From Burkholderiales bacterium (lineage in GTDB: Bacteria; Pseudomonadota; Gammaproteobacteria; Burkholderiales; UBA11063), in NCBI GenBank assembly GCA_035438765.1, contig DAORIZ010000002.1:65249-129248 (forward strand): a stretch of 64,000 nt of DNA, written 5' to 3'. Numbering within the stretch: position 1 is the stretch's first letter; the number at the start of each line of letters is the position of its first letter. This document shows positions 17,969 through 47,572 of this stretch, in pieces. Made by a program: the position numbers and the translations under genes. The notes beneath the pieces were generated by a model. That model searched no databases. It saw only the letters and a program-made list of their open reading frames with translations, and was not told the origin of the DNA.

Positions 17969-18008
17969 GGGTGTTTTGACCCAACCCCTCAAAAGTGTAA
18001 AATTTTGA
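17969..18008. repeat. terminal IR of Tn3-family element (tnpA end)
   Basis: GGGTGTTTTGACCCAACCCCTCAAAAGTGTAAAATTTTGA, compared with the reverse complement of 23843-23882, GGGTATTTTTGCCCATCCCCTCAAAAGTGTAAAATCTTGA. Confidence 0.85.
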
Positions 18009-18010
18009 AA

Positions 18011-21652: not shown

Positions 21653-21780
21653 AGATACACCTTGTAAATGTTCGTTTTAATCAGTAAAAATATTATTACA
21701 GAACTTTGAAATAGAATACTAGTATTATAAACTGATTTTGAGGTATAATACACAATATTTTCAGTTTTAAAAATAGTCTT

Positions 21781-21798
21781 TAATAACGGACGTTATTA
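21781..21798. promoter_or_regulatory. res-like palindrome TAATAACG-GA-CGTTATTA (candidate crossover subsite)
   Basis: 18-bp dyad about 130 bp upstream of tnpR, at the distal end of the tnpR-cargo intergenic region. Confidence 0.5.
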
Positions 21799-21831
21799 CG
21801 AACTTTGTTTTTTCTGTCTAAGGTAAAAGAT

Positions 21832-22653: not shown

Positions 22654-22684
22654 AATTTAACTAATTACAAAAGATGACTTTAAT

Positions 22685-23839: not shown

Positions 23840-23842
23840 GCC

Positions 23843-23882
23843 TCAAGATTTTACACTTTTGAGGGGATGGGCAAAAATACCC
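23843..23882. repeat. terminal IR of Tn3-family element (cargo end)
   Basis: Inverted copy of 17969-18008 (35/40 matches). Confidence 0.85.
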
Positions 23883-23978
23883 TACAGCTGGTTTGTTGAT
23901 GTGATACAATTCTTATCTATATGTGAGATTGTATAATTTTATATCAAATTATAGGTTAATACTTAACAGTGACTAAAA

Positions 23979-24593
23979 ATGGCTAAAATTATCGCTTATC
24001 TGCGTGCTTCTACAGATAAACAAGATTTAAATAATCAAAAACTAGAAATTCTGGAGTATGCACGCAAAAATCATCTTGAGATTAATGATTTTATTGAAAT
24101 TACTATTTCGAGCAGGAAAACCAGCAAGGATAGGCGTATTGATGAGATGGTATCAACTTTAAGTGATGCAGATACTCTTATTGTTACTGAATTAAGCCGG
24201 CTAGGTCGAAGCACAGCTGAAATCATTGGTCTAGTTAATGCGTTAATTAAGAAACAAGTTCGGGTTATAGCGATTAAACAAAGCCTCGACCTGAAGCAGC
24301 ACGACATGAATTCGAAAATCATTACCGCTCTATTCTCTTTATTTGCTGAACTTGAAAGGGATTTAATTAGTTTAAGAACAAAAGAAGCTTTGGCAAATAA
24401 AAAGTCTCAAGGTATTCAGCTAGGCAAACCTAAAGGTACGATTCAAAAAAGTAAATTTGATAAAGATCTTCCAAAAATCAAGGAGCTATTAACCCTAGGA
24501 TTATCCGTCAGAAAAATAGCTAATTTTTTAGGTTACTCAAATCACATAGGGTTAAATGAGTATATTAGAAAACGAAACATAATAATACGTTAA
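23979..24593 (+). CDS. tnpR: serine recombinase (resolvase of the second transposon)
   Basis: MAKIIAYLRASTDKQDLNNQ catalytic-Ser motif and C-terminal HTH. After the first transposon is deleted in silico, this gene is divergent from the 999-aa transposase. Confidence 0.8.
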   Translation: MAKIIAYLRASTDKQDLNNQKLEILEYARKNHLEINDFIEITISSRKTSKDRRIDEMVSTLSDADTLIVTELSRLGRSTAEIIGLVNALIKKQVRVIAIKQSLDLKQHDMNSKIITALFSLFAELERDLISLRTKEALANKKSQGIQLGKPKGTIQKSKFDKDLPKIKELLTLGLSVRKIANFLGYSNHIGLNEYIRKRNIIIR

Positions 24594-25061
24594 ACAGATT
24601 AGAAAAATAGGCACTACTTACTTTACCATATGAGTTGCAGTGAAAATTCAAATAAAATCATTTACTTTAAGTAAGAAATAAATACCATGAGCTCATCTTT
24701 AAATGTTATTCTTGTTATTGTCGGATCTTTAGTCCTAGGTATTTTTAGTTTTCCTGCGATAATTAATCGAGGCTTTAAAGGAGTACTGTTGTTTTGTACT
24801 GCCTGTTAAGTTGCTTATTATATTTGGGAGTGGCTGGGTCATCCTTTGATATCTATTTGTATATTATTTAGCATTTTGTGGATTGGATTTATTTTTATTA
24901 AGGGTTAACTAGTATTAATCAAGTGTTGTAATATGAAACAGTCAGTGTCTGATTATAGGTTAAATAATGTATAATATGTTTAAAATACAGTTAGCTGCTA
25001 AACAGATAAGTTATAATTAAACGGTGATTTATGTCTGTAATTTTATAATGGGGTAGTAATT

Positions 25062-27713
25062 GTGAAAAAATTTAAATATATATTTCTTTCTATTATTTCT
25101 TCAGGGATTATTTCCTGTGGCGGAAGCAGTGGAGGCTCTTCCGGAGGAGGGGCAAACCCACCTGTTCCAAGTACATATGCTACTTCTATAAATATGGGAA
25201 ATATTTCTACTATTCCACTAGGTCAGGGATCATCTGGCAAATCAACAATTACTGTTACCAATAATTTGAGTGATAAGGTGGTTTTAACTAAAGCAACTTA
25301 TACAGTTACGGCAAATGGCGTTACAAATTCACCGCAAACTGCTAATACAGCAGGAAGTCCTGTTGATGTTAGCCAATGTGGAAGTATTTCTCCCCGTGGC
25401 GCTTGTAGTATAAATGTAAGCCCTCCTGATAATGTTGGTCAAGCCCAATACGTTGTAAGCATGGAGTATTTGGATGCTTCTTCTGGTAAAACATATTTAG
25501 CAACTAATATAGTAAGCTTTTCTGATACTGTTCCAGTTACTGATACAGGCGTAAGATATTCAACGTTAAACAATAATGTTTATAACGAGCCAGGTGGCAG
25601 TACAACAATAACTATTCCGTTTCAATTGACTAAAAACTTTGCAAACTTAAGTGCAAGTAGTAACAATTCAAATCCAGCTTTTGCGCCAACAATAAGTTGT
25701 CCAGGCAATAGCTATACTATAGGAGCACTTTGTAATCTTTATGTTAAGATTTCCAATACCGGAACTAATCCTGTAGTTGCCGGAGGAGTAACAGTTAGCG
25801 GTGAACCATTAGTTGTTTCACAATCGACGGCTAATAAATCTCAGTTAAAATCATTAAATGCATCACTAAAAGGTGCTACTTCATATCTTTTTGGTGTTCC
25901 AATTACGGTATCACAGAATTTAACTGGTAATCTAGTTACTTCTGCAATAAATGTTGTAGTTAATCCATCAAACGGGAGCTCTCCACAAACGGTTACCTTA
26001 TTAAATAATGGAACTGCAACCATTACAGGCATTTCAGTTAATGGTGTTACTCCTGTAACAATTGCTAGCAATGGATGTTCAAGTCTAGCCGTTGGTGCAT
26101 CTTGTACATTTAATGTAAATGTTAATTCAAGTACTAGTGGGCAATCGACAGTAAATATTTCTTACAACAATGGCGCAACCAGTGGAAATACAACTGGGTT
26201 ATTAGTATTTAACGTTGTTTATATATCTTCAACTTCTAGTCCAGGACTTAGTCTAACTTCTGGGCAGGGTAATTTAAATAATGTACCAATAAATACCACA
26301 CAATTTTATAATATTGTCGTTAATAATACAGGTAGTGTAACTTTAAATAATATTAGATTCACTAATCCAAACTTACAAAACGCATTCTTTAGTTGGACAG
26401 GCGGGTCGTGCAATACATCAGGAACTCAGTCTTTAGGTGCTGGTGAATCATGTACCCTAGTATTACAGTATTCACCTACATCTGTGGGAAGCGGAACACT
26501 AAATATTAATGCGGCTGGTACGTGGCAAGATCAAAGTGGTAACCCGAAAACATATGCCGCTACTACGCTTGGTTTGGCATATAGTTCAATTACTGGCGAT
26601 GCATTTTTATATGTAACTCCTAATTATGTTTCATTTGCAATTCGTGCAGATGGACAAGATACAGCAACCCAAACATTCAATGTTGTTAATGCAGGTCTTC
26701 AATCAACTACATTAAATGTGATTTCAGTAGCTCCAGGGGTAACTGCATTTACTAATCTTGGTACTGGCACATGTACTTTAAGCCAAACACTAAATGTAAA
26801 TGAATCATGTACAATTAATACTCGATATGGTACAACCACAACTACTATGACCAATGTTGAGAGTCAAATTAATATTGGCTATAAACCAAATGGTAATTAT
26901 ACAAATGACGTATTTGCTTTTGCCAATTTGGTATTTAATAGTTCTCCAGCAGCATATGTAACAATTTCCAATATAGCAGTAACTGGTACAGGTAGCGGTA
27001 GTGGGACTTCTGGTAGTCCATACCTATATACTAACACTTCTGCTACTGGAGGTCAATTAGGCGTGGTAGTAACCTATAGTAATAGTGGCACAGCTAATGC
27101 TGAAAGCTTTAATGTTGCTCTTAATAATTTACCGGTAGGCTATGCTGAGTCATCCACGGGTAATACTTGTGGAACTGGTGCAACTACGACTACTCTTAAT
27201 ACAAGTAGCACATGTGCTGTTACCTTCTATGCTGTAAACCCAAATGGTTTATATAACCCATATGCTTTATCTGGAACTGGGCTTGGATTTAATATTCCTG
27301 GGTTTAGTTATAAAGATACAAATACCGGACTAAATACCAACCAATTTCCAACCTGGTCTGGGCACTATGGAAATAGTAATAGTATTTACGTAACCACTAG
27401 TCTATTTGCAACAGTTACTACTTCAACCCCTAGCTGGACTACAGCGAGTGCAGGTGGAACTAATAACTTTACCTTTACCGGCACACCAAACGGAACTGTT
27501 ATTACTATACCTAGTGGTCAATTAAATGGATTTACAATTGGTAATAGTGGGACTTGTACTATTGCAAGTGGAACTTGTACGATATCAATTACTAATCCGG
27601 CAAACTTTCCTACAGGAACTAATTATTTTAGTTACTATGTGACACCTGCTGGGGTAGCATCACCTAGTTCAACTAATAGCATAGTGCAACAAGCTAGCTT
27701 TACTTTAAATTAA
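25062..27713 (+). CDS. giant surface lipoprotein with repeated Cys-pair beta-sandwich modules (choice-of-anchor-D/ASH-like)
   Basis: Lipobox GIISC plus GGSSGGSSGG linker. 883 aa, rich in T/S/N/G. Recurrent C...L..G.SC...V module (GCSSLAVGASCTFNVNV; GSCNTSGTQSLGAGESCTLVLQYSP; GTCTLSQTLNVNESCTINT). Confidence 0.65.
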   Translation: MKKFKYIFLSIISSGIISCGGSSGGSSGGGANPPVPSTYATSINMGNISTIPLGQGSSGKSTITVTNNLSDKVVLTKATYTVTANGVTNSPQTANTAGSPVDVSQCGSISPRGACSINVSPPDNVGQAQYVVSMEYLDASSGKTYLATNIVSFSDTVPVTDTGVRYSTLNNNVYNEPGGSTTITIPFQLTKNFANLSASSNNSNPAFAPTISCPGNSYTIGALCNLYVKISNTGTNPVVAGGVTVSGEPLVVSQSTANKSQLKSLNASLKGATSYLFGVPITVSQNLTGNLVTSAINVVVNPSNGSSPQTVTLLNNGTATITGISVNGVTPVTIASNGCSSLAVGASCTFNVNVNSSTSGQSTVNISYNNGATSGNTTGLLVFNVVYISSTSSPGLSLTSGQGNLNNVPINTTQFYNIVVNNTGSVTLNNIRFTNPNLQNAFFSWTGGSCNTSGTQSLGAGESCTLVLQYSPTSVGSGTLNINAAGTWQDQSGNPKTYAATTLGLAYSSITGDAFLYVTPNYVSFAIRADGQDTATQTFNVVNAGLQSTTLNVISVAPGVTAFTNLGTGTCTLSQTLNVNESCTINTRYGTTTTTMTNVESQINIGYKPNGNYTNDVFAFANLVFNSSPAAYVTISNIAVTGTGSGSGTSGSPYLYTNTSATGGQLGVVVTYSNSGTANAESFNVALNNLPVGYAESSTGNTCGTGATTTTLNTSSTCAVTFYAVNPNGLYNPYALSGTGLGFNIPGFSYKDTNTGLNTNQFPTWSGHYGNSNSIYVTTSLFATVTTSTPSWTTASAGGTNNFTFTGTPNGTVITIPSGQLNGFTIGNSGTCTIASGTCTISITNPANFPTGTNYFSYYVTPAGVASPSSTNSIVQQASFTLN

Positions 27714-27725
27714 AGTGTAGTAAGT

Positions 27726-27758
27726 GGAGATAGTTTTTAGACATCTAAAACTATCTCC
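27726..27758 (+). other. perfect 12-bp-stem hairpin abutting the start-codon repeat
   Basis: GGAGATAGTTTT-tagacatct-AAAACTATCTCC. There is no U-tract after it, so it is not a canonical terminator. Confidence 0.5.
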
Positions 27759-27780
27759 ATGAATGAATGAATGAATGAAT
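27759..27780 (+). repeat. tetranucleotide repeat (ATGA)5 containing the start codon
   Basis: ATGAATGAATGAATGAATGAAT. Of the five ATGs, only the one at 27771 opens the 1066-aa frame. Confidence 0.9.
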
Positions 27781-30700
27781 TAAAAAACTTACTTGTAATA
27801 ATATGTGTTTTTATCTTATCTTCATGTAACATAGGACAAACAAGTAATCAGAATCAGAAACCATTTGTTGGGTCAGTAACTATTGGACATATAAGTATAA
27901 TTCCATATTCTTCATATTCGAATGATTATGCACTACTACCAATTCAAAACAATAGTAATCAAACAGTATTTTTTTCTTCAGTTAGTGTTACTCAAAATGC
28001 TATAGCTTTAACTACTAGTAAATATTTGGATATAACCTCTTGTAATGTTATATTACCAAATCAGATATGTTATATTAAAATATTTGCGAACCAACAAACT
28101 GGTTATCAAATTGATGTCATTTATGAGATATCAAACCATCATAAAATAAATCTTAGGCAAATTGTCAATTTTAGTAATAACTTACCCCAAAATGATGGAA
28201 TGATTATTTCAAACCAAAATAATTGGGTAAGCACAGTATCAGCATTAAGCATTCCTGTTTTATTAAGTAAGTCTTATTCCAAGATAGAAGCAAAACTTGG
28301 CAATTCAGACCTAGCAGTAATTTGTTCTCAACCAAACACAAGTTCACATAATATATGTACAATAGTAATACCTGCTATGAGTGTTTCTGATGAGAATAGG
28401 CTAGTTACTATAAATGCATACAATAATCATGAACTAAAATCAATAATTTCTTATACGAGTACTGTAACATTAACTAACAACACCAGTGCCAATATTATCT
28501 CATCCGCAATAAATCCGGTAATTAATCCAGCAAATGGCAGTAATCCAGTTTCTATAACTCTTTTAAATAATGGTAATGCACCAGCTACGTCTCTTAAAAT
28601 TTCAGGGGTAACACCCATCCAAATTCAAAATAATACTTGCGGTAGCAATTTAAATGTTTCACAATCCTGTACTTTTCAGGTTAATAGCTCAAACTCTACT
28701 AGTGGTCAGTCCTCAACAATTATTAGCTACACTAATTCGAGCGGTACTCAATTATTACCACTAAATGTTTCTTATATTGGTACAGCTCCATCGCCATTAC
28801 TTACTTTAACTCCCAATGGTGGCTTTACCAACGTTGCAATTAATCAGGGAAATGTCTATTTGACGGTAAATGTACAAAATACAGGAAATGCCACTCTTCA
28901 AAATTTACAATTCAATAATATAAATGCAGTAAATTCAGCAATGAGCTCTTTTGTTAATGGTAGTACATGTAGTAATGGGCAAAGCATAGCAAGCGGCGGC
29001 AGTTGTAATATGGTGTTAAGTTATAATCCAACCAGTGCACAAAGTGGAACTGTTACATTTATTGTAAAAGGAGATTATTACAATCAGTCTGGTCAACTGC
29101 AAACTTACTCTAACTCAAGTCTAATAATATCTTATTCAGCAGTAAGCGGAGCTATTTTTAAAGCTGTAGGAGATTTTGGGATGGTTATTACCTCCCCTGC
29201 TGGAGCAGCAGGAACCTGGACGGCTGATATAAATAGTCCGTTTACAACAACAGCAATTAGCGGGAATAGTCTATTAGTTAATAATGGCACTTACGTAATG
29301 AGTATGAGTAATGGTCCTATTAAATATAGTACTTTAAATGGATTATTTTGGCAAACTAGCCCATTAGGTGGTACTGCTGCGTTAAATGCTAGCACATGCT
29401 CCATTGCCTATGATGGAACATATTATTATACCTGTGGTACCGTTAGCACTGCGTTTGCTTCAACCTGCACTACAACTGGTAGAGGTTGTGTTATGCGAAC
29501 AAATAATCTAAATAGTAGTTGGACAGCTTTATTTACTCCAGCTCAAGCAGTGGCAGTTAATGATTTATTTTATTTTAATAATGGGGCTAATGCCGCATAT
29601 GTTGCTGCAATTGCAAATACTACCGCCAATAATACAGGGCTAGCCACTTCAACGAATGGTTCAACCTGGGCAGCAACTTCATCAGGTCAGGCTAAAGCAG
29701 CAAACAATAATTTTACCCCTGTAGTCCTTAATGCCGCTACTAATAATTTGACAACTTGGAATTCTGTAGGATGGAGCAGTACTGAGCCTATTTCTACAGT
29801 AGGTACAGCGTGGGTGGCTAATACCACAACTAGACCAGCAAATAGTAAAGTTACCAGCGCATTATTTCAAGGAAGCACCTATGTTTTAACCTTAGCTAAT
29901 GGAAACATATATACAACAACTACCCCAACTGGAACATATACGCAACGCTCAACCAATGCAACTCAACTTAATCGTATTATCTATGCTAATAATATTAGTA
30001 GTGGAACTTATTTATCAGTTGGTAATAGCGGAGTAAATTTAACGACGACGACCCCAACTGGAACCTGGACAGCGCAAACAGTACTAACAACTGGACAAGC
30101 CACAGTACCAAATTTAACTGGTGCATATTATGATGGTAGCAATATTTGGGTGACAGGTGTAAGCACTATTCTGAAATCAAATAATGCTACAAGCTGGACC
30201 ACTCCTGGATTACAAAGTATCACAAAAAATGGCTCAACTTATCTTGCGGTAGACAATCAGGGAAACATTTACTCTTCAAGTAATGGTACTAGTTGGATAC
30301 AGCAAACTAATCCAACTTCCAATATATTAAATCATATTTATTGTGCGGCACAGAATTTGTGTTTCGCGGTAGGAAATAGTGGGACGATTTTAAAATCAAC
30401 TGATGGGACTAATTGGTCACAATTATCATCTGGAACAAGTAATAATTTACAGGAAATAACCTGTAATAATGAAACATGTATTATAGTAGGTGGGAATGGA
30501 GCAGCAAGTAGTGGAACCATACTTTCTAGCAGTGATTATACAACTTGGTCAATCGTAACCACTTCTTTAGCAACCACAAGCCTAAATAGTATAGCTTATT
30601 ATAATGGCAGTTATATAGCCGTAGGTAATACGGGAACAATTTTTAGTTCTACCAATGGAATTAATTGGCAATCAATTACTTCTGGTACTACTCAAAATCT

Positions 30701-30971
30701 AAATTCAATTGACTGTGGCAATAATGTTGGATGTGCTATAGTTGGTAATGCGGGAACTATTCTATTTTCTGCATTTGGTATATCTTGGAGTGCTGCTACT
30801 TCATCAACAACAAATGATCTACTCTCTGTTGCGTATAATGGTGTTTTTGCTGCAGTTGGGAAAGGCGGAATACTAAGGTATTCTTCCACAGGAAGCGGAA
30901 CCTGGAGTAGTGCTACATTTCCTACTACAAGCAGTGCAACAAATAATATAAATGCAATCATTAGTAATTAA
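27771..30971 (+). CDS. giant surface lipoprotein: N-terminal paralog of the upstream gene plus C-terminal beta-propeller-like repeats
   Basis: Lipobox ILSSC. About 230 aa collinear with 25062..27713 (SSAINPVINPANGSNPVSITLLNNG... compared with TSAINVVVNPSNGSSPQTVTLLNNG...). C-terminal repeats GNSGTILKSTDGTNWSQL, GNTGTIFSSTNGINWQSI, GNAGTILFSAFGISWSAA. Confidence 0.65.
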   Translation: MNELKNLLVIICVFILSSCNIGQTSNQNQKPFVGSVTIGHISIIPYSSYSNDYALLPIQNNSNQTVFFSSVSVTQNAIALTTSKYLDITSCNVILPNQICYIKIFANQQTGYQIDVIYEISNHHKINLRQIVNFSNNLPQNDGMIISNQNNWVSTVSALSIPVLLSKSYSKIEAKLGNSDLAVICSQPNTSSHNICTIVIPAMSVSDENRLVTINAYNNHELKSIISYTSTVTLTNNTSANIISSAINPVINPANGSNPVSITLLNNGNAPATSLKISGVTPIQIQNNTCGSNLNVSQSCTFQVNSSNSTSGQSSTIISYTNSSGTQLLPLNVSYIGTAPSPLLTLTPNGGFTNVAINQGNVYLTVNVQNTGNATLQNLQFNNINAVNSAMSSFVNGSTCSNGQSIASGGSCNMVLSYNPTSAQSGTVTFIVKGDYYNQSGQLQTYSNSSLIISYSAVSGAIFKAVGDFGMVITSPAGAAGTWTADINSPFTTTAISGNSLLVNNGTYVMSMSNGPIKYSTLNGLFWQTSPLGGTAALNASTCSIAYDGTYYYTCGTVSTAFASTCTTTGRGCVMRTNNLNSSWTALFTPAQAVAVNDLFYFNNGANAAYVAAIANTTANNTGLATSTNGSTWAATSSGQAKAANNNFTPVVLNAATNNLTTWNSVGWSSTEPISTVGTAWVANTTTRPANSKVTSALFQGSTYVLTLANGNIYTTTTPTGTYTQRSTNATQLNRIIYANNISSGTYLSVGNSGVNLTTTTPTGTWTAQTVLTTGQATVPNLTGAYYDGSNIWVTGVSTILKSNNATSWTTPGLQSITKNGSTYLAVDNQGNIYSSSNGTSWIQQTNPTSNILNHIYCAAQNLCFAVGNSGTILKSTDGTNWSQLSSGTSNNLQEITCNNETCIIVGGNGAASSGTILSSSDYTTWSIVTTSLATTSLNSIAYYNGSYIAVGNTGTIFSSTNGINWQSITSGTTQNLNSIDCGNNVGCAIVGNAGTILFSAFGISWSAATSSTTNDLLSVAYNGVFAAVGKGGILRYSSTGSGTWSSATFPTTSSATNNINAIISN

Positions 30972-31041
30972 TGGCGATTATATTTTGAATCAAATTTAAC
31001 ACATGACTTGCTTAATAAGTCTATTAATAGCAATGGATAGC

Positions 31042-31082
31042 TGCAAATTTCAAAAAAATCTGCGGTTTGGGAATGGCACCCC
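31042..31082. repeat. 41-bp terminal IR of the second Tn3-family transposon
   Basis: Its reverse complement, GGGGTGCCATTCCCAAACCGCAGATTTTTTTGAAATTTGCA, is identical to 38558-38598. Followed by CTATA at 31083-31087. Confidence 0.85.
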
Positions 31083-31377
31083 CTATAGCTCTGGTTTGGG
31101 TTTTAACTTCATCCGTGAGGCTAGATAAGCTCGCCGAGCTTATTGCGCTAGTTACGGCTTGTTTGATAGTTTGGTCTATCGTTGAGGTGTCTAGTTTGGG
31201 TTTTATGCTTGCTGCACCATAAACCGCCGTTTTGTATTCATCAACCAGTCTTTTTAGTTCTGTCGTGTCAACTGGTGCTTTGTACTGATTTAACTTTGCT
31301 AAAAAATCGTCTTGGATTTCTTTTTGCTTTTTTAGAAATGCTTTGATTAAGGTTTGATCATCCATTAGAGCGCTCAT
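31083..31377 (-). pseudogene. N-terminal ~98 codons of a mob-operon gene split by the second transposon
   Basis: ORF 31024..31377 reads ...TQTRAI and then runs into IR-encoded residues. It joins in frame to ...EHNNSLLSNGTGWQLKFWVILL... at 38557 across the CTATA duplication. Confidence 0.7.
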
Positions 31378-31771
31378 CTAAAAATTTCTTGCCTTGGTTT
31401 TTGTAGAACTCTAGCCAATTTTGCTTATTATCAGTAGTTAAACCAAAGCCATTAGTAGTTAATTCTTGTTTAGCTTTAATCAGTAAACCAATAAGCGCAT
31501 TTTTAAGTTCATTGTTATCTGCAATTTTATCAAACTCATCTGCGCCAAAAACCAAAGGTACTAGACCACCCCAATCATAGATTTTTTTATTACGAAGTTT
31601 ACGAGCTTGGCTTTTTTGCTCCTTTTCTTTTTCTCGTTCAATTTGTTTAGCTAATTTTTCTTTAGCTTTCAATTGTTGTTGTTCTAAACGTTTAAGTTGC
31701 AATTCTAGTTGTTTAACGGTTAGCTTCTTTGTTTCTATTTTCTGATTAATGTCTTGGCTATTATCAATCAT
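31358..31771 (-). CDS. mobilization accessory protein (coiled-coil, Ti TraD/MobC-like)
   Basis: Divergent from mobA across the candidate oriT. K/E/Q-rich coiled coil, then ...KIYDWGGLVPLVFGADEF... Confidence 0.45.
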   Translation of the reverse strand: MIDNSQDINQKIETKKLTVKQLELQLKRLEQQQLKAKEKLAKQIEREKEKEQKSQARKLRNKKIYDWGGLVPLVFGADEFDKIADNNELKNALIGLLIKAKQELTTNGFGLTTDNKQNWLEFYKNQGKKFLDERSNG

Positions 31772-31897
31772 GTTGCTTACTCCACATTATGTTATTGATT
31801 CAAAGAGTAATTATACAATATCGCGCCATATATTCTGGTATAATTGTGCTTAGATTTAAGATGGCGCTAGTAGTACTCTTAATCGAAGTATGAGATA

Positions 31898-31935
31898 AGA
31901 GCGCACTTTACGCCTTGCTACGCAAAGCAGTGCGT
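31898..31935 (-). promoter_or_regulatory. candidate oriT (MOBQ-type nic region plus hairpin)
   Basis: The minus strand reads ACGCA-ctgctt-TGCGT agcaagg CGTAAAGTGCGCTCT. The last block resembles the RSF1010-type nic core TAAGTGCGCCCT as I recall it. Confidence 0.45.
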
Positions 31936-31973
31936 TACTCTTTGCAAAATTAACAAATTAGGAAAACAACAAA

Positions 31974-33473: not shown

Positions 33474-33563
33474 AGTATAGCCACAAAAAGTTAAGATTCA
33501 GTAATTAAAATGATAAAATTCAAAGTATAAACAAATTGAAAACAATTAAGAACAGGTGAATAC

Positions 33564-33962
33564 ATGGCTAAAGTATCAATCTCAGAAGCTATCCGCATGG
33601 CTGGTGTTAGTCGTTCTCACTTTTATAACAAGTATATAAATAAAGGCTTAATTAGTGTACAAGTTGAAGATGATAAAAAATTAATAGAAATTTCTGAATT
33701 AATAAGAGTGTTTGGTAATATACAGGTAGAGAATAGTACTAAAGAACAAATAAGAACAGTTGAAGACATTAAAAATATACCAGATAGTACAAAGATTATT
33801 GAATTATTAGAACAGCAACTACTAGAATATAAACAGAGGGAAATTGAAGCTAAAAGTAGGGAAGAATGGCTTCAGAAACAAATTGATGAATTAAGGCAAC
33901 AACAGAATAATTTACTAGAAAACAAAGCCATTAAGCGAAAAAAATTTTTAGGATTATTTTAA
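33564..33962 (+). CDS. HTH DNA-binding protein with coiled-coil tail
   Basis: MAKVSISEAIRMAGVSRSHFYNKYINKGLI looks like an excisionase/MerR-type HTH. Confidence 0.45.
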   Translation: MAKVSISEAIRMAGVSRSHFYNKYINKGLISVQVEDDKKLIEISELIRVFGNIQVENSTKEQIRTVEDIKNIPDSTKIIELLEQQLLEYKQREIEAKSREEWLQKQIDELRQQQNNLLENKAIKRKKFLGLF

Positions 33963-33982
33963 TAACTCCAAAAGGAATAGTT

Positions 33983-35860
33983 GTGAGTAAAATAGAACAA
34001 TACACAGAAGAATTAACCAAAGCACTGATGGGGTTTAATCTTGGAGAAAATGACTTTGGTCATGTTTATCCTCAAGGAAGTGTTACGGGTATTTCAAAGA
34101 TAGAAACTGCTTTAAAAAAAGCTGGTGGAAAGCCAGTGAGCTGCGAATTAAATGATTACTCATTGGGTGGGAATGGTAATGCAAAACCTGAATTTATTAT
34201 TACATTTAAAGAAGATATAAACACAACCTTAATTATTGAATGCAAGAATAAGACTGCGCAACATGAAACTAAAGAGGTCTATAACAAGCCAAGGAAATGT
34301 GCAGTTGATGGTGCTCTATATTACGCTAAGTTTTTAAAAGATGATTATAATGTTATAGCCATTGGTATAAGTGGAACAGATGAAAAGAAAACCCAGCTAG
34401 ATGTTTTTTACTGGACTAGAGGTCAAGAAAAGCCACAACTCCAACAAAAGTTACATAACATCTTCTTGACCCCAATTAATTACCTAAGAGCCATAAAAGG
34501 TGAAAAGATAACTAAAGCATATTCATTAGATGAAATTAGGGCAACTGCGTTAGACTTTCACGATAAATTAAGAGAAATTAAATTAACAGAAAAACAGAAA
34601 CCTATTTTTATTGCGGGCATACTGATAGCATTAGAAAATCATGACTTTGTAAACAGTTATATTAATTTACCTACTTTTAAAGCCATTATTACACAACTAA
34701 ATTCTGCAATAGTAGATGTGCTTGATAATAGTGATGTTAAAAAGGTGAATTTAGAAAATATTAAAAAGTCATTTACACAAATAGGAAATAATCCTAAACT
34801 ACGAGATATGCCATTAGACAGAGATGGCTCTATTCGTTGGTATATTGAACAATTAGAAATGAAAATCAAACCAATGATGAATAATGCTGACTATTCACTT
34901 GATGCATTAGGTGTTTTCTATCATGAATTTGTGAAGTATAGTGGTGGTGATGGTAGTGGTTTAGGAATTGTCCTAACACCGCAACATTTAACGGAGTTTA
35001 TGAGTGAGTTGGCAGAGGTTAATCAAAATAGCAGAGTTGTAGATATATGTTGTGGTAGCGGCTCATTTCTAGTTACTGCTATGAATAAAATGTTCAAAGA
35101 AGCACAGACGCCAGAGAAGAAAAAAGAGATTAGACAGCACCATTTGTATGGAATTGAACTAGATCAAGATTTATATGTTCTAGCTATTGCAAACATGATT
35201 GTTAGGAAAGATGGAAAGTCAAACATCATACATGGTGACTGTTTTAATAAGAATGTTATAGAAGAATTAAAAACCTTAAGTAATAAAAAATTAGATATTG
35301 GACTGTTAAATCCTCCATATTCACAAAGAGATAAAAGCGAACTAGAGTTTGTTGAGCAATTATTATCTGTTATTAATAAAGGTGGTAAAGCTGTAGTAGT
35401 TGTACCTATGTCCTGCGCTATTGGTACAAAATTCAAAGAAGAACGAAGAAGATTATTCGAAAATCACACTTTAAAAGCAGTTTTTTCTATGCCTGATGAT
35501 GTATTCTATCCGACAGGTACAAATGTTTGTGTTATGGTTTGGGAAGCTCATAAGCCACACAATAGTGCAATAAAAACATTCTTTGGCTACTATAAAGATG
35601 ATGGGTTCGTGAAACGTAAAAAGCTTGGAAGGGTAGATGCTTTTAGTAAGTGGGAATCCATTAAAGCAGAGTGGCTATCTCTGTATTTAAATTCGGAAGA
35701 AAAAGTTGGTATAACAGCTAAACAAGCTGTTAAGCATAATGATGAATGGCTATGTGAAGCATATATGCAAACCGATTACAATAAGTTGACACAAGAAGAT
35801 TTTGAGAAAACAATAAAAGATTATTTTGCTTATTTAGTAAAAAATGGAATCTCATCATGA
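33983..35860 (+). CDS. fused PD-(D/E)xK nuclease / N6-adenine methyltransferase (BcgI-A-like Type IIB R-M subunit, or unusual HsdM)
   Basis: Motif I VVDICCGSGSFL and motif IV LLNPPYS. The N-terminal ~100 aa carry PEFIITFKEDINTTLIIECKNK (PE-X14-ECK). 625 aa. Confidence 0.55.
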   Translation: MSKIEQYTEELTKALMGFNLGENDFGHVYPQGSVTGISKIETALKKAGGKPVSCELNDYSLGGNGNAKPEFIITFKEDINTTLIIECKNKTAQHETKEVYNKPRKCAVDGALYYAKFLKDDYNVIAIGISGTDEKKTQLDVFYWTRGQEKPQLQQKLHNIFLTPINYLRAIKGEKITKAYSLDEIRATALDFHDKLREIKLTEKQKPIFIAGILIALENHDFVNSYINLPTFKAIITQLNSAIVDVLDNSDVKKVNLENIKKSFTQIGNNPKLRDMPLDRDGSIRWYIEQLEMKIKPMMNNADYSLDALGVFYHEFVKYSGGDGSGLGIVLTPQHLTEFMSELAEVNQNSRVVDICCGSGSFLVTAMNKMFKEAQTPEKKKEIRQHHLYGIELDQDLYVLAIANMIVRKDGKSNIIHGDCFNKNVIEELKTLSNKKLDIGLLNPPYSQRDKSELEFVEQLLSVINKGGKAVVVVPMSCAIGTKFKEERRRLFENHTLKAVFSMPDDVFYPTGTNVCVMVWEAHKPHNSAIKTFFGYYKDDGFVKRKKLGRVDAFSKWESIKAEWLSLYLNSEEKVGITAKQAVKHNDEWLCEAYMQTDYNKLTQEDFEKTIKDYFAYLVKNGISS

Positions 35861-36792
35861 AAGTAATAGATATTTTTGATGTTGTTTACGGTGTAAACTT
35901 AGAATTAGTCAATTGTAACGAAACGTCATCAGTTAGTAATAGTGTTAATTTTGTATCGAGAACTAGCGAAAATAATGGAGTTGTAGCAAGAGTATCATTA
36001 ATTGATGGCATAATTCCTCATGCAGCAGGTACTATATCTTGTGCCGCTAGTGGCAGTGTTCTTTCTACTTTTGTGCAACATGAACCTTATTATAGTGGTC
36101 GAGATTTATATGTTTTAACTCCAAAATTAGAACTAAATTTAGTTGAAAAGTTATTTTATTGCTATGTTATAAATGCTAACAACTATCGTTATAGTTATGG
36201 AAGAGCTGCAAATAAAACTCTAAAAGATATTGAGTTACCAGATGAGATACCTGAATGGGTTTATAAGGTAGATTTTGAGAATTATTATAAAGCCATAAAA
36301 ACAAATGTACTACATAGGAATTTGGAACTAGATACTTTTAATTGGCAAGAGTTTGAACTAATAGATTTCTTTGAAATGTTTGCTGGGAAATACATAAACA
36401 AATTAGACTATGAATCAGGTTCTGTTCCTTATATTTCAACTAGTGATACAAATAATGGTGTAATGAATTTCATAAACCAAGAACCAGAGTTTCCAGAAAA
36501 TTGTATAACAATTGGAAAGGTTGGGGTTACTACATATTATCAAGGAAGTAAGTTTTTAGCTACTTCAGATGTAACTGTACTTAAGCCTAAAGGAAACTTC
36601 CTAAATAAGTATACTGGTATTTTCATAACAACGTTAATTAAGTTAGAATCAAAAAAATGGACTTATGGACGCCAGATAAGACTAGGAGATTGTAAAGAGT
36701 TAATTATAAAATTCCCTGTAAAAGATGGTGCACCTGACTGGGGATTTATGGAGAATTTTATAAAACAGCTTCCTTATTCAGATAAAATTTAG
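35857..36792 (+). CDS. restriction-modification specificity subunit (two target-recognition halves)
   Basis: Overlaps the upstream stop (ATGA). Two internal repeats, each with ...VSRTSENNGVV... or ...ISTSDTNNGVM... 311 aa. Confidence 0.6.
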   Translation: MKVIDIFDVVYGVNLELVNCNETSSVSNSVNFVSRTSENNGVVARVSLIDGIIPHAAGTISCAASGSVLSTFVQHEPYYSGRDLYVLTPKLELNLVEKLFYCYVINANNYRYSYGRAANKTLKDIELPDEIPEWVYKVDFENYYKAIKTNVLHRNLELDTFNWQEFELIDFFEMFAGKYINKLDYESGSVPYISTSDTNNGVMNFINQEPEFPENCITIGKVGVTTYYQGSKFLATSDVTVLKPKGNFLNKYTGIFITTLIKLESKKWTYGRQIRLGDCKELIIKFPVKDGAPDWGFMENFIKQLPYSDKI

Positions 36793-36823
36793 TGGTAGTA
36801 TTATTTTTCTAGGTATAGTCTTA

Positions 36824-37726
36824 ATGACACAGAAAACAGTTATAAATAAAGAATATTTTGAAAAAGCTAAGCAACATCTTATAACAAAAGAAAAGCTTCA
36901 GAAAGCAGAAGAAGAAGCAAAGCTGCTTGGTACAGCTATGCAGCAACTTTTACCTGAAATTTTTGAAGATAGGCGTGCAATTCCAAATTGCTTTTTGCGT
37001 GGTGCTTTATTTGGCATGGTTCGTAAAGGACGTAGGAGTTTAGTAGAGAATCAACCTATTTTCACCATGTCGCAATACAAAGTTTCATTTAGTGGTTCTG
37101 AAATGGATCAAAATGATTTAGAGCTGTGGGATACGCTTATGTATCTAGCTAAAAATAGGCAGGTTGATACAGAATTAAGAATTACTCTTTATGATCTATG
37201 TCAACAGATGAGATTAACAGATGCCAAAAGTAATTATGAGCGTTTAACAACTAGGGCAAAAAGATTGGCATTTGGTAAGGTAAGCATTAAAGCCGATAAC
37301 AAAGAATATTTTGGTAGCTTATTAGATGATGTATATATTGATAACGATGGAGATGGTAAGCTTGTTATAAGATATAATAAAAAGCTAGCTCCTTTATTTA
37401 CCGATGGAGACTATACTTTAATAAGCGCAGACATTCGGCACTTGTTAGGAGATAATCAGTTAGCTAGATGGTTGTATAATTTTTATGAAACACACAATCA
37501 ACCTTTACCATTTACCATTGATTTTCTACAAAAGCTTTGCAGAAGTGATAATTCGCCAAAAGACTTCAAATATAAGTTAAAAATAGCTTTAGCTCAAGTA
37601 AAAAAAGCTCACTTGGCTGTTGATATAAAGTCAAAATGGGAATGTGAAATAACTAAAAACAATTATCTTCTAGTATATCCAAATGGGAAGACTAAAAAAC
37701 AATTAGAATTGTTTAGTAGATTTTAG
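36824..37726 (+). CDS. trfA: TrfA-family plasmid replication initiator
   Basis: ...DRRAIPNCFLRGALFGMVRKGRRSL... matches the TrfA signature (PN..LRSALFG). Iterons follow immediately. Confidence 0.7.
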   Translation: MTQKTVINKEYFEKAKQHLITKEKLQKAEEEAKLLGTAMQQLLPEIFEDRRAIPNCFLRGALFGMVRKGRRSLVENQPIFTMSQYKVSFSGSEMDQNDLELWDTLMYLAKNRQVDTELRITLYDLCQQMRLTDAKSNYERLTTRAKRLAFGKVSIKADNKEYFGSLLDDVYIDNDGDGKLVIRYNKKLAPLFTDGDYTLISADIRHLLGDNQLARWLYNFYETHNQPLPFTIDFLQKLCRSDNSPKDFKYKLKIALAQVKKAHLAVDIKSKWECEITKNNYLLVYPNGKTKKQLELFSRF

Positions 37727-37828
37727 CGACCAACTACCGTACTATCAGCGACCAACTACCGTACTATCAGCGACCAACTACCGTACTATCAGCGACCATA
37801 CTACCGTACTATCAGCGACCAAAAAACC
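37725..37828 (+). repeat. iteron array (origin of vegetative replication)
   Basis: AGCGACCAACTACCGTACTATC occurs three times (37725, 37747, 37769). A 23-bp variant AGCGACCATACTACCGTACTATC is at 37791, then a partial AGCGACC. An AT-rich stretch follows. Confidence 0.85.
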
Positions 37829-38274
37829 TATAAACGCCATATTTGCAGTGTTTACAGCTAACCCTAATCCTTTATTTAATCCTTTAAATAATCAGTAAAA
37901 ATCAACACTATTTTTTTACAACAGTGGTTTTATTGATTTTTACAATTAATCAAACCTTAATCCAATATGTTGATTTTTCGGGTGCATTGAGCACCACTCA
38001 GATCGATGCGCTTTGCGCAACTAAAAATAGCTCGCTACGCTCACAAAATCTTAATTTGCTATCTTTGTATGTAACGGTGCTAAAAAATGCAGCTATCGGC
38101 TTAAAAATGCGATTAGGTCGGTAATTAGGGCGCGAATAGCAGTTGTTTTTCTAAAACTATCCCGCGTATCAAGATTTTTCTTATCTAAAGGTTGGTTGAT
38201 AGGGGGTTGCACCCCCTCCCCATTCCGCTATCGCTTCATTACGTCGCCTATCGGCTCCTGCCCCGCTTATATCG

Positions 38275-38557
38275 CTACTCTAAAGACCAAATTTGAGTAT
38301 CGCAGTCTATTGATTGATTACTCCATTTAGCATAGGCTTGTTTGGTTTTGCAGCTAGAATTAATATATTTCAAGTACCCTGTAGCTTTGTTTGCCTGATA
38401 TTGCAGTTTGTAATTGTCCGTTAATTGTGCAGGAATTTTAAAATACCAATTTACACCCCAACCTGTCATAAATCCAAAAACTAAAGTTAGCAAGATAACC
38501 CAGAATTTTAGTTGCCAGCCAGTCCCATTTGAAAGTAGGCTATTGTTGTGTTCTATA
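38275..38557 (-). pseudogene. C-terminal ~93 codons of the split mob-operon gene (TM-containing)
   Basis: The first ~19 codons of ORF 38275..38616 are transposon/IR-encoded. The remainder, IEHNNSLLSNGTGWQLKFWVILLTLVFGFMTGWGV..., continues the 31377-31083 frame. Confidence 0.7.
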
Positions 38558-38598
38558 GGGGTGCCATTCCCAAACCGCAGATTTTTTTGAAATTTGCA
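38558..38598. repeat. 41-bp terminal IR of the second Tn3-family transposon (tnpA end)
   Basis: GGGGTGCCATTCCCAAACCGCAGATTTTTTTGAAATTTGCA, preceded by CTATA at 38553-38557. Confidence 0.85.
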
Positions 38599-38615
38599 TG
38601 AAAGCATTGCCATCA

Positions 38616-41615
38616 CTACCTTATATCCAATTCAATACTTTTAACAATCTCATCCAAATTAATTACCGTACTATCAGAAAACACTAATCTTCCCTGAAAA
38701 TGAATATGCTGCCAGGCTATTGGGGATATCTTTTTAAGCATTTTTAAAGCTTTCTGATTATTTTCTGCTTTGTACCTGTCATATAACTTGGATAAAATCA
38801 TTGAGTTGTAATGGATTATTACATTGGCTATTAATCGGCCACATTGATTGCTTATTTCTAATGCCCAATCAGTTTTGCCAATCAAATGCTTTTTGCCGTA
38901 AGCTTGAGCTATACCTGACCTCAATTGATGATAAGATTCCAACCGATTTTGTGAACGATGCGTGGTACTTATAATGTTTGGATCCAGCAGATATTGTAAT
39001 ATTTGGTTACTCCGAACCAGCTTGTCCAATTCGTATAGTGCTTCCCGGGTTTTGTGTTCCTGCTTGTAGGTACAGAGTTTTTTGATTAGAGAAGCCTGGC
39101 TAACTTCTCCGCTACCTAAGGTTGCGATTATTCGTTCCAGGTTTTCAGACTCAGATAAAATTAACTCACGATTGATTTCCCCACGTGGTTTAATATCGTA
39201 ATTATCGTATTTATCAAGCCACTTCTCACAATATACGTGCTGAAGCTGGTTATCAATATTGGTGAATCGTGGATATAATTCACCATCAAACCAATACATT
39301 ATAACTGAGTTTGCTTTATTCAGAATATGCATGTCCCCAGTTAAAATTTGTGGATTAATTTCACTGGAGTTGTTATACCAAATATCAAAAGCAAAATAGC
39401 TTTCATGGTCATTTGAGCCTAACAAATATGTTTGTAGCGGGACGTGGTTACATAACATTGAATATGCTACTACACCTTTACCTTTGCCAAAATATTTCTT
39501 GCCGTGTCGGGCTTTAATAGTTGGAGTGGCCATGTTAAACTTCTGCCCATCAACTGCTCCATGTAGCATTCCAAACTCGAATGAATAATGTGGAAAAATT
39601 GACATTTGAGCAATACTATTACTAATCATATCATTAGCTGCAATTAATGTTGCTAACCTAAGGCGGGCAAGGTAAGTGTCCTGCAAAGTATTATACGGGA
39701 TATTAGCGATATTTGCCATATTCGCGTTGCCGCTATTCATTCCCTGAGCCAGGATAGACGCTATCAAATGATCAAGATTAGCTTCTGACTTTACATAGCG
39801 AGGCTGGATATGACTAAAACTGTCGAGAAATCTGCATTCTTTATGCACCGTCTTTATGACATTTACAATATCCTGAAAGGGGAAATGCTCATAGAGTGAG
39901 TGTTCAATTTGGTCTTGTTTGGGTAAGGCTGAGCGTTTTAGATGCAGTTTTTTGGTTTTTTCGTCATAATATAGGTGTTTTAGCTTGCCCTGACGATATA
40001 GCCTATGAAATTTCTTCCATAGTTGGTTAGATTTAGCTAGCAGTTCATCAAGTTGTTTAGATATGGGCTTTTTAGCTGTTTCAGCTGTGAGTTTTTGCCA
40101 AATAGCATCCTTCTTATCTTTTGTTACCAGTTCGTCGCTTAAATTGCGATATAGCAAAGAATCTCTAAAATAAGTGTTCCCAGAGATTATTGAATCCTGT
40201 ATTTTACGGTATACCCAATATTCGTAACGGTTCAGGATAAGGACTGTCTGGTCATTGACTTTCTTGGTTAAATAAGGTAGTAATCGCGATGGCAAATTTG
40301 GAAAATCAGTAATATTATGTTTGATCTTTAGGTACTTAAGCCAGTTAATTGCTTCTAACAGTTCACCTTTGGCGCTGGAGAAATCGAGGTTTTGAATCAA
40401 ACAGCGAAGGTTGGATTTTAGATAGGTTGCTACTTTATCTACACTTTCCCAATAAACTATAGCCTCCACGGCGGATGAGCTCTCAGTGATGTATTTGAGA
40501 ATTGCCTGCTTATCTAAAATGTCAAACGCCTTTTGACGCACATCTCCAAAACTCAACTCATCCGAAAGGCTTTCATCCACATAAAATTTAACCAATTGCT
40601 TCATATAGTTCATACTTGCATTTTGTTCAATTGCATTAGCCGCAATTGCCTGCTTATTTATTTCACCTACTTTACCCTGAGCATGGCGCTGATGATAACC
40701 AAAAGCAATGATTAAATTATCAATTATCTGTTGGAAGCGGTGATGTATATAGCATAAGATATATAGATAGCTTTGCTCGACTTTTATATGTTGACGCAAG
40801 TCATAGGCTGAATAATAATGGATGAATGTGCCATAATTATTGATATTGTTTTTTGAAATAGATAACTGTGGTAGTATTCTTTTAGCAATCAGGTAAATCG
40901 GGTGCATTATATTTAACTTCCTGCATTCCTGCAGCATCATGCGTGGTTTAAAATCTTTAGCATCCTGCTTTATTGCAGCTAATTCACTAAGTGTGCTCTC
41001 ATTGCTTACTAGTGCCAGAATTAACTTACTTTCCTCTGAAGTAATTTGATGAATAAGTAAATTACTAATTCTGAATTTCTCGGAGTTAATTGCTGTAATT
41101 ACAACTTCTTGAAGCGTTGTATATTGTGGGCGAATAATTTTTTGCTGTTTGAGGTATGTTAATAGCTCCAAAGCAATAAATTGCTGATTAACGTTAAGCT
41201 TTACCAATTCATTAGCTTTATTCAGCAAAGGGTCACTAAACTGAGATTCCCACATTCGAAAACCATATAATTCAGCTATGGCTGTACATTGAGTGTAATA
41301 TTCGTAATCTGTGATTTTACTTAGCTTAATTTTTTGGTCATAAAAGTATTGCTCCAAAATAAATGAAACAGTTTTATTGCTCACATCATTCCAGGCAACC
41401 TTAAAGAATAGGGTTACTGCTTTAAAATACGCCAGTTGCAAACAGCAATAAACCCGGGCACTCCATGAGCCACGGCTCATTACTATATCCAGCTCCTTTT
41501 GAGTTAAGGTAAGATACTCGTAATGCTGTTCTTCATTGAAATCTGGGGTTTCATAATAAGCAGCGCGTTCAGCTTGAGTTAATATTTCTAAATGCTCATT
41601 AGGTTTATGCTTCAT
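38616..41615 (-). CDS. tnpA: Tn3-family DDE transposase (999 aa)
   Basis: Collinear with the 1016-aa TnpA, with the same N-terminal ...ETPDFNEEQHYEYLTL... pattern. C-terminal ...NRLESYHQLRSGI... motif. Confidence 0.85.
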   Translation of the reverse strand: MKHKPNEHLEILTQAERAAYYETPDFNEEQHYEYLTLTQKELDIVMSRGSWSARVYCCLQLAYFKAVTLFFKVAWNDVSNKTVSFILEQYFYDQKIKLSKITDYEYYTQCTAIAELYGFRMWESQFSDPLLNKANELVKLNVNQQFIALELLTYLKQQKIIRPQYTTLQEVVITAINSEKFRISNLLIHQITSEESKLILALVSNESTLSELAAIKQDAKDFKPRMMLQECRKLNIMHPIYLIAKRILPQLSISKNNINNYGTFIHYYSAYDLRQHIKVEQSYLYILCYIHHRFQQIIDNLIIAFGYHQRHAQGKVGEINKQAIAANAIEQNASMNYMKQLVKFYVDESLSDELSFGDVRQKAFDILDKQAILKYITESSSAVEAIVYWESVDKVATYLKSNLRCLIQNLDFSSAKGELLEAINWLKYLKIKHNITDFPNLPSRLLPYLTKKVNDQTVLILNRYEYWVYRKIQDSIISGNTYFRDSLLYRNLSDELVTKDKKDAIWQKLTAETAKKPISKQLDELLAKSNQLWKKFHRLYRQGKLKHLYYDEKTKKLHLKRSALPKQDQIEHSLYEHFPFQDIVNVIKTVHKECRFLDSFSHIQPRYVKSEANLDHLIASILAQGMNSGNANMANIANIPYNTLQDTYLARLRLATLIAANDMISNSIAQMSIFPHYSFEFGMLHGAVDGQKFNMATPTIKARHGKKYFGKGKGVVAYSMLCNHVPLQTYLLGSNDHESYFAFDIWYNNSSEINPQILTGDMHILNKANSVIMYWFDGELYPRFTNIDNQLQHVYCEKWLDKYDNYDIKPRGEINRELILSESENLERIIATLGSGEVSQASLIKKLCTYKQEHKTREALYELDKLVRSNQILQYLLDPNIISTTHRSQNRLESYHQLRSGIAQAYGKKHLIGKTDWALEISNQCGRLIANVIIHYNSMILSKLYDRYKAENNQKALKMLKKISPIAWQHIHFQGRLVFSDSTVINLDEIVKSIELDIR

Positions 41616-41635
41616 ATCATCTGTTAATGTATAAT

Positions 41636-41653
41636 TAATAACGATCGTTATTA
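41636..41653. promoter_or_regulatory. res-like palindrome TAATAACG-AT-CGTTATTA of the second transposon
   Basis: Perfect 18-bp dyad directly abutting the TACAG duplication. The half-sites are identical to those at 21781-21798. Confidence 0.5.
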
Positions 41654-41700
41654 TACAGGGGTGTTTTGACCCAACCCCTCAAAAGTGTAAAATTTTGAAA

Positions 41701-45342: not shown

Positions 45343-45521
45343 AGATACACCTTGTAAATGTTCGTTTTAATCAGTAAAAATATTATTACAGAACTTTGAA
45401 ATAGAATACTAGTATTATAAACTGATTTTGAGGTATAATACACAATATTTTCAGTTTTAAAAATAGTCTTTAATAACGGACGTTATTACGAACTTTGTTT
45501 TTTCTGTCTAAGGTAAAAGAT

Positions 45522-46343: not shown

Positions 46344-46374
46344 AATTTAACTAATTACAAAAGATGACTTTAAT

Positions 46375-47529: not shown

Positions 47530-47572
47530 GCCTCAAGATTTTACACTTTTGAGGGGATGGGCAAAAATACCC

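Follow-up and report, generated by a model that had tools for sequence, protein, structure and literature searches.

The window analysed here is a stretch of 64,000 nucleotides of contig DAORIZ010000002.1 (assembly GCA_035438765.1, Burkholderiales bacterium; positions 65,249 to 129,248 of the forward strand), and its central part, between positions 23,883 and 41,653, holds the genes of a Tn3-family transposon and of a small plasmid, enclosed by two copies of another Tn3-family transposon. In the following, the 10,296-bp element that is the main subject is called TnB, the second transposon TnA, the small plasmid Y and the conjugative plasmid to which it is joined X; contigs from public data are designated by L numbers. 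On the circle that Y would form, the order of features is inverted repeat (IR), tnpA, the TnA site, tnpR, a gene for a protein of 883 amino acids (aa), a gene for a protein of 1066 aa and the second IR (coordinates in Table 1), as proposed in an earlier interpretation made from the letters alone (the sequence-only reading). The reconstruction as a whole, in which TnB is a complete Tn3-family transposon in the core of Y, with TnA nested in it and Y fused to X, is held here with high confidence.

The ends of TnB are marked by a 41-nt IR, GGGGTGCCATTCCCAAACCGCAGATTTTTTTGAAATTTGCA, which occurs exactly twice in the window, in opposite orientations and with zero mismatches between the copies. A search allowing three mismatches adds no further copy, none of 100 shuffles gives a match, and similarity between the two arms extends to 61 nt at 87%. 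The IR sequence starts GGGGTG, and both GGGG tips look onto segment 31083-38557, with CTATA standing directly outside each tip. DNA homology of related elements (L012-L019) ends exactly at the tip at 38558. Coordinate arithmetic gives 17,771 bp for circle Y when TACAG is counted once, 10,296 bp for TnB and 7,470 bp for the plasmid core. The perfect 41-bp IR pair, the CTATA on both outer flanks and the sizes of core and transposon had all been claimed beforehand and hold at base level, and a check for other partners of the IR yielded none within the window. TnB shows the hallmarks of the Tn3 family, namely a DDE transposase of ~1000 aa, GGGG-type IRs, a 5-bp duplication and a resolvase module.

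The target of TnB can be restored in silico. Deletion of TnB and one CTATA joins 31377->31083 to 38552->38275 (minus strand) into a single open reading frame (ORF) of 190 aa, whose junction reads ...TQTRAI-EHNNSLL... and whose product has a hydrophobic segment at residues 115-133. The required frame is open over 91 codons, versus 14 and 3 in the other two frames, a length equalled by only 16 of 20,000 shuffles. At E<=0.01, 50 homologues of the restored protein were found, all aligning unbroken across the junction; the best (P0001, 186 aa) shows 90% identity over 98% of the 190-aa query. The gene for P0001 sits on short contigs laid out like core Y. They carry a relaxase of the MobA/MobL type (499 aa), then a 132-aa gene, a slot with variable cargo and a TrfA-like Rep (300 aa), in addition to two overlapping genes (137 and 186 aa) that diverge from mobA. 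The two halves of core Y match neighbouring stretches of these plasmids at 80-87% and are collinear with L006-L011; one of them, L007, closes through a 55-bp terminal overlap into a circle of 7,649 bp. In six related plasmid contigs the empty site is present as a single copy, ...GTTACGTT CTATG GCTCTGG.... A chance frame match is refuted, because the joined ORF has contiguous homologues and its insertion site is single-copy in relatives. The claimed ORF of about 190 aa with a transmembrane (TM) helix is hence recovered by the deletion, with more than 50 full-length contiguous homologues. Its designation as a ‘mob-operon gene’ stood in part: the 137-aa and 190-aa genes overlap and are kept beside mobA, but neither matches a Mob family, so that the label rests on position and conserved synteny. 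Near and distant searches of PLSDB with the core, TnA and the X flank gave either no match or a 101-bp methylase match, and the uninterrupted relatives came to light instead by way of protein homologues and of contigs from metagenomes. Among the public contigs searched, the exact core was not recovered without TnB.

The transposase of TnB (TnpA_B) scores 533.3 bits on the NF033527 equivalog model (cutoff 500), shares no more than 45% identity with any PLSDB TnpA and is 31% identical to the transposase of TnA (TnpA_A). Among the PLSDB matches listed, the nearest named TnpA is that of the Tn4401 family, with 43.6% identity at 100% coverage. The resolvase (TnpR_B) has the N-terminal sequence AYLRASTDKQ, with the serine at the expected position, and its homologues at 70-91% identity are common in metagenomes. 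TnB represents a new, previously unnamed Tn3-family lineage of freshwater Neisseriales/Burkholderiales-like bacteria. With tnpA and both IRs intact, it is probably still able to transpose; variants of TnB at differing loci (L100, L019) indicate that the module has moved.

The tnpA and tnpR genes of TnB are divergent and flank res in an intergenic region of 38 + 5 + 91 = 134 bp, the length also found in the intact copy L099. A palindrome in this region, TGTATAATTAATAACGATCGTTATTATACA, has a central AT and lies distal to tnpR, and its final five bases reach into the TACAG duplication (41654-41658). The palindrome core, AATAACGNNCGTTATT, is conserved ~113 bp upstream of tnpR_B homologues at 13 loci (L019-L021, L028, L029, L039, L044, L050, L053, L056, L069, L075 and L080, all fetched with tnpR_B), and the res alignment, made of 66 distinct upstream regions and the TnB reference, reveals additional conserved blocks nearer tnpR. 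The TnpA_B relatives L012-L018 share with TnB at the DNA level only the tnpA and IR module; they are uninformative on continuity across the TnA site, because their resolvases and cargo differ. In L016, homology with TnB breaks at the palindrome centre. In Tn3-type res regions, site III is tnpR-proximal, recombination takes place within site I, which is also where modules are exchanged (PMC7157771). Because the break in L016 and the unrelated resolvases of L012-L018 fit this scheme, the palindrome is interpreted as the putative res site I of TnB.

TnA landed at the outer edge of this putative site I. TACAG is the last part of its tnpR-side arm, and therefore site I stays with tnpA and the remaining blocks with tnpR. 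The split would disable the res of TnB itself, and a TnB::TnA composite would depend on the res and TnpR of TnA for resolution. TnA is itself a typical Tn3-family member, with a TnpA scoring 623.8 bits on NF033527, imperfect IRs of ~50 bp, 5-bp duplications and a resolvase with res; the 196-aa resolvase carries HTH_7. Identical TnA copies are found at three independent sites, with ATCAT as target duplication in X, TACAG in TnB and AACCA in another TrfA/MobA plasmid (L108/L110), and empty sites are seen in L126 and L019. The outer flanks of the TnA pair in the window are both ATCAT (17964-17968 and 47573-47577), and joining them restores a 464-aa multi-pass membrane protein beside a GT2 glycosyltransferase on X, which is an F-type conjugative plasmid with TraU, TrbC, a TraD/TraG-like coupling protein, a ParM-like protein, ArdC and UmuC.

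Other states of the same elements are preserved in public data. L099, a Logan contig of 10,278 bp, corresponds to TnB 12-10285 at 99.95% identity without TnA; it contains tnpA, the 134-bp spacer, tnpR and the 883-aa and 1066-aa genes, its tnpA stretch is 100% identical to that of TnB, and it differs by one single-nucleotide polymorphism (SNP) and by an additional ATGA unit where the 1066-aa gene starts. L019 (WBZO01002227.1) aligns to TnB 1-3764 at 89.5% as one block across the TnA site, with a single TACAG. A variant at 88% (L100/L101) has the arrangement tnpA-tnpR-886-1064 in another plasmid context, with a TATAA flank. Y itself is found as a free molecule: JGI contig Ga0119869_1000644 (23,729 bp, 17-bp end overlap) corresponds to Y with one copy of TnA, circularly permuted, with zero mismatches to the window and, as sole difference, a fifth 22-bp iteron where the window has four, so that the free plasmid Y::TnB::TnA measures 23,712 bp versus the predicted 23,690. 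Several assemblies contain X with one TnA copy (ATCAT/ATCAT), one instance being a 116-kb contig, and L126 represents X without TnA, with an intact 464-aa gene and the exact joined site. Lastly, Ga0119868_1000025 (107 kb, sister metagenome) reads tnpA_B-core-cargo-tnpR_B-TnA-X-left, which is the cointegrate junction of the window. Two further proposals of the sequence-only reading are thereby substantiated: the circle deduced from coordinates exists as a free plasmid contig, and the interruption of the element by the other transposon is evident from the intact L099 and the unbroken alignment of L019.

These observations are best accommodated by the following sequence of events. TnB inserted into a mobilisable plasmid of 7.47 kb and TrfA/MobQ type, where it truncated a conserved gene for a membrane protein of 190 aa at codon 98 and duplicated CTATA. 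TnA, an unrelated Tn3-family element, inserted into the 134-bp tnpA-tnpR spacer of TnB, duplicating TACAG, at a later or possibly an earlier time. In the window, Y is fused to X through the two identical direct-repeat copies of TnA, as would result from Tn3-type cointegrate formation or if X::TnA and Y::TnA had recombined. It is because of this fusion that the ends of TnB seem to point away from each other, in line with the proposal that the diverging IRs make sense only on circular Y. The cointegrate would allow conjugative X to carry Y along (conduction). As for the ‘three dated layers’ of insertion that had been suggested, the nesting of the elements stands, whereas their order is likely but not proven: an insertion of TnB into the core followed by that of TnA into TnB is the simplest reading, but the core with TnB and without TnA was not recovered and TnB::TnA could move as a unit.

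Several points weigh against this reconstruction. Among the recovered contigs there is no copy of this core with TnB but without TnA, and L117 and L118 both carry TnB and break at the repeats. The subsites of TnB res are assigned by analogy only. Furthermore, TnA has an apparently intact resolvase and two complete direct-repeat res, which should resolve the cointegrate quickly, and the cointegrate in the assembly could be an assembler path through the 5.9-kb repeat. The alternative that survives best, possible though doubtful, is built on this last point: X-TnA-Y-TnA-X would be an assembly artefact, X::TnA and the free 23.7-kb Y::TnB::TnA being separate molecules, with TnB real and unsplit in vivo. 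Both separate forms are indeed present in public assemblies at ~100% identity, all junctions of the window are equally compatible with two separate molecules, and the intact TnA resolvase acting on two identical res should resolve a true cointegrate. However, Ga0119868_1000025, from another metagenome, carries the same path (which could also result from repeat traversal), and homologous recombination between the 5.9-kb repeats is expected to re-form cointegrates at some frequency.

Less probable, and on balance unlikely, is a different order of events, in which TnA entered TnB first and elsewhere, the 16.2-kb composite then transposed into Y, and Y was joined to X only afterwards, when it recombined homologously with a resident TnA; the nesting would in that case not mirror the order of the insertions. 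The composite could move, since TnB tnpA and both IRs are intact; wherever the exact core was recovered with TnB, either TnA is present as well or the contig breaks at repeats; and X::TnA is widespread by itself. Against this stands the existence of a near-identical intact TnB (one SNP and one 4-bp unit), from which the TnA insertion must be very recent relative to TnB, although the order relative to the core is not fixed thereby.

A last alternative concerns the choice of the TnA site. The resolvase bound at the AATAACGNNCGTTATT core shared by both transposons would have attracted the TnA complex beside site I of TnB, in the manner of Tn5053/Tn402. This 16-nt core occurs three times in 64 kb (21782-21797, 45472-45487 and 41637-41652), where ~0.01 occurrences are expected by chance; the sites correspond to both TnA res copies and TnB res, with none elsewhere in the window, and the core is shared at the expected site I position even though the two resolvases are only ~32-34% identical. 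The TACAG duplication begins 1 bp past the motif, and another TnA copy (L112) ends inside a resolvase gene. Conversely, five other TnA flanks (X ATCAT, L108/L110 AACCA, L105, L100 and L112) lack the motif within 100-150 bp with 4 mismatches allowed, the TnB res region, at 28% GC, is richer in AT than the other targets tested, Tn3-family elements prefer AT-rich DNA, and the coincidence is a single event noticed after the fact. In view of the five flanks, res-site targeting by TnA is largely rejected as very improbable. The full version, in which a resolvase-occupied shared site I steered TnA, disabled TnB resolution and created a 16.2-kb composite relying on the res and TnpR of TnA, is a shade more improbable still; if true, it would be a Tn3-family form of ‘res hunting’.

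Table 1. Features of TnB, TnA and plasmids Y and X in the window (positions in the 64,000-nucleotide stretch)
Feature	Position	Strand	Remarks
TnB IR, tnpA end	38558..38598	+	GGGG tip at 38558
TnB IR, cargo end	31042..31082	-	GGGG tip at 31082
CTATA, TnB target duplication	31083..31087	.	Single CTATG here in relatives
CTATA, TnB target duplication	38553..38557	.	Outside tip of tnpA-end IR
TnB tnpA, 999-aa Tn3-family DDE transposase	38616..41615	-	PF01526, E 3.3e-84; DUF4158
tnpA-proximal part of TnB res, with palindrome	41616..41653	.	Putative site I
tnpR-proximal part of TnB res	23888..23978	.	Putative sites II/III and tnpR promoter; conserved blocks
TnB tnpR, 204-aa serine resolvase	23979..24593	+	PF00239, E 1e-32
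Passenger 1, 883-aa putative lipoprotein	25062..27713	+	Ig-like (choice-of-anchor D / ASH-type) repeats
Passenger 2, 1066-aa putative lipoprotein	27771..30971	+	Ig-like repeats, then tandem beta-propellers
Split 190-aa gene, 5' part (codons 1-98)	31083..31377	-	Restored ORF, homologues
Split 190-aa gene, 3' part (TM segment, C-terminal domain)	38275..38552	-	Restored ORF, homologues
Core of Y	31088..38552	.	Collinear at 80-87% with L006-L011
137-aa gene	31358-31771	-	In core Y
MobA/MobL relaxase	31974-33473		In core Y; PF03389, E 3e-41
132-aa gene			In core Y, between relaxase and N6-methylase
N6-methylase	33983-35860		In core Y
S subunit	35857-36792		In core Y
TrfA-like Rep	36824-37726		In core Y; PF07042 (TrfA), 45 bits vs cutoff 22
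Four 22-bp iterons	37725-37821		In core Y, Rep-proximal
TnA copy 1, 5,914 bp	17969..23882	.	tnpA (1016 aa), tnpR (196 aa), ANT-like and tetracycline-destructase-like genes
TnA copy 2	41659..47572	.	100% identical to copy 1, direct orientation
TACAG, TnA target duplication in TnB	41654..41658	.	Beside TnA copy 2; L019 and L099 have it once
TACAG, TnA target duplication in TnB	23883..23887	.	Next to TnA copy 1
TnA ANT(9)/ANT(3'')-like nucleotidyltransferase and 384-aa FAD enzyme	21805-22653 and 22685-23839
464-aa gene split by TnA on X	16934-17968 and 47578-47937	-	Intact in L126 (GCA_013558375.1)
IS256-type (Mutator family) transposase gene, plasmid X	3853-5097		PF00872, E 9e-120

The cargo of TnB consists of two large genes whose products both have a putative N-terminal signal peptide and a lipobox-like Cys (…GIISC and …ILSSC). 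Their N-termini, VKKFKYIFLSIISSGIIS-C and MNELKNLLVIICVFILSS-C, contain non-canonical lipoboxes, and lipoprotein localisation of both is predicted from these features. The two passengers are paralogous over their N-terminal ~480 aa (34% identity), and both match the choice-of-anchor D domain model NF012200 below its cutoff. At E<1e-3, passenger 1 has 185 cluster representatives; for passenger 2, 16 homologue matches were found, and the protein family is small. A search of PDB sequences returned no relative of either passenger. The AlphaFold2 (AF2) model of the 1066-aa protein is all-beta with a predicted local distance difference test (pLDDT) score of 78.9, and Foldseek relates it to Ig arrays of the ASH/HYDIN type and to tandem beta-propellers (GH74, 2ymu) with low TM-scores. 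These fold matches are generic and, given the low TM-scores, no specific function can therefore be assigned to the two passengers; a role in surface adhesion or carbohydrate binding is a guess from the modelled fold.

The origin of this pair is suggested by Aquella oligotrophica, a member of the Neisseriaceae from tap water with 36.4% G+C (PMC6612550). Its chromosome has adjacent genes for proteins of 866 and 1082 aa in a neighbourhood free of transposon genes. Of these, the larger protein is 48% identical to passenger 2, and the 866-aa protein, with a faint HYDIN/VesB-type Ig Pfam match, has the size and position of passenger 1. Because a homologous pair stands there side by side without transposon genes, the cargo may have been acquired from a chromosome within the Neisseriales, that of an Aquella-like bacterium. 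The cargo homologues, together with MAG labels, also suggest that the source of the window has an affinity to Aquella/Neisseriales. An (ATGA)5 repeat at 27763-27782, directly after a hairpin, overlaps the start codon of the 1066-aa gene. L099 has six ATGA units at this place, which leave the ORF unchanged and shift its spacing to upstream signals by 4 nt; (ATGA)n may be a slipped-strand expression switch of a kind common in the Neisseriaceae.

The core of Y has a MobA/MobL relaxase, a TrfA-like Rep with iterons and a circular free form; the relaxase scores 158 bits on the MobQ model NF041496, below the cutoff of 200. The slot between the 132-aa gene and rep (33564-36792) carries differing restriction-modification or defence cargo in each relative. 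It is occupied in the window by an N6-methylase and an S subunit, without an R gene, in L006 by a fused MTase-S protein, and in L007 by an ApaLI-type endonuclease, a methylase and a TIR (ThsB-like) protein. Neither Rfam nor tRNA scans gave a match in the window.

In TnA, the FAD enzyme reaches 532.7 bits on the tetracycline-destructase model NF033476 (cutoff 550) and matches Tet(51), PDB 5tuk (E 2e-131). The copy in L112 has one end inside a truncated resolvase gene. TnA is an actively spreading element, with possible relevance for antimicrobial resistance. A further copy, in L105 (Logan DRR379928_129, 3285-9198), has the right side of X as one flank and a CN-hydrolase gene (...ACCATTTA) as the other; its 5-bp flanks do not match, which is the signature of further TnA-mediated or inter-copy recombination.

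Degenerate traces of TnB-like elements were also encountered. The metagenome-assembled genome (MAG) contigs that bear the IR (L001-L005) contain just IR/tnpA remnants or solo IR-like ends. In L001 (3167-3650) and L004, from MAGs labelled Neisseriales and Burkholderiales, the TnB IR is followed by 260-480 bp of the tnpA 3' end at 91-94% identity, and both are decayed copies of the TnB lineage. The remnant in L001 abuts, as judged by eye, an apparent fragment of another transposase gene; an 8-bp flank similarity seen there was dismissed as chance, the flank resembling that fragment. In L100 (9208-9402 and 15107-15208), the TATAA flank of the TnB variant is followed by a second GGGG-type IR with a 132-bp tnpA 3' remnant in opposite orientation, and the contig ends in a TnA-like IR (93% identity). 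The TnA and TnB lineages therefore co-occur repeatedly.

Taken together, the locus and its relatives illustrate with natural material each stage of Tn3-type transposition, from the empty target through the simple and the nested insertion to the free product and the cointegrate, and can as such serve annotation and teaching. The biology is textbook, and the understanding of Tn3-family elements is unchanged by these findings. What they contribute is a previously unnamed Tn3-family lineage with two giant putative surface lipoproteins as passengers instead of resistance genes, and a TnA that carries a tetracycline-destructase-like gene, occupies several sites on at least three plasmid backbones and links mobilisable Y to F-type X.

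Among known systems, TnB resembles Tn3 and gamma-delta (Tn1000), of the Tn3 subgroup, in its TnpA of ~1000 aa with a DDE_Tnp_Tn3 domain, its IRs of ~38-41 bp starting with GGGG, its 5-bp AT-rich duplication, and its divergent tnpA and tnpR with res in a ~130-bp spacer and putative site I tnpR-distal (order: PMC7157771). The cointegrate formed with a conjugative plasmid is a further likeness to gamma-delta. Conduction of small plasmids by F is mediated by gamma-delta. The differences from Tn3 lie in the IR sequence and the putative site I core (AATAACGATCGTTATT), in a TnpA_B that shares at most 45% identity with PLSDB TnpAs, in two putative lipoprotein genes as cargo instead of bla, and in environmental Neisseriales/Burkholderiales-like hosts. 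The transposase aligns over its full length with that of the Tn4401 family, where a serine resolvase is likewise present. However, identity is below 45%, cargo (blaKPC in Tn4401) and IRs are different, and TnB is not a Tn4401-subfamily member at any useful level. By its position at the res site of another element, TnA recalls the ‘res-site hunters’ Tn5053/Tn402, in outcome only, since the latter use TniABQ and target res systematically, whereas the other sites of TnA are not at res. As to cargo, the comparison is with TnXax1 of Xanthomonas (xopE, mlt), a Tn3-family module that moves host-interaction genes and not resistance (PMC7157771). The passengers of TnB are, in the same way, presumed cell-surface genes rather than resistance genes, but TnXax1 belongs to the Tn4651 subgroup with TnpS/TnpT resolution, whereas TnB combines a serine resolvase with a putative lipoprotein pair.

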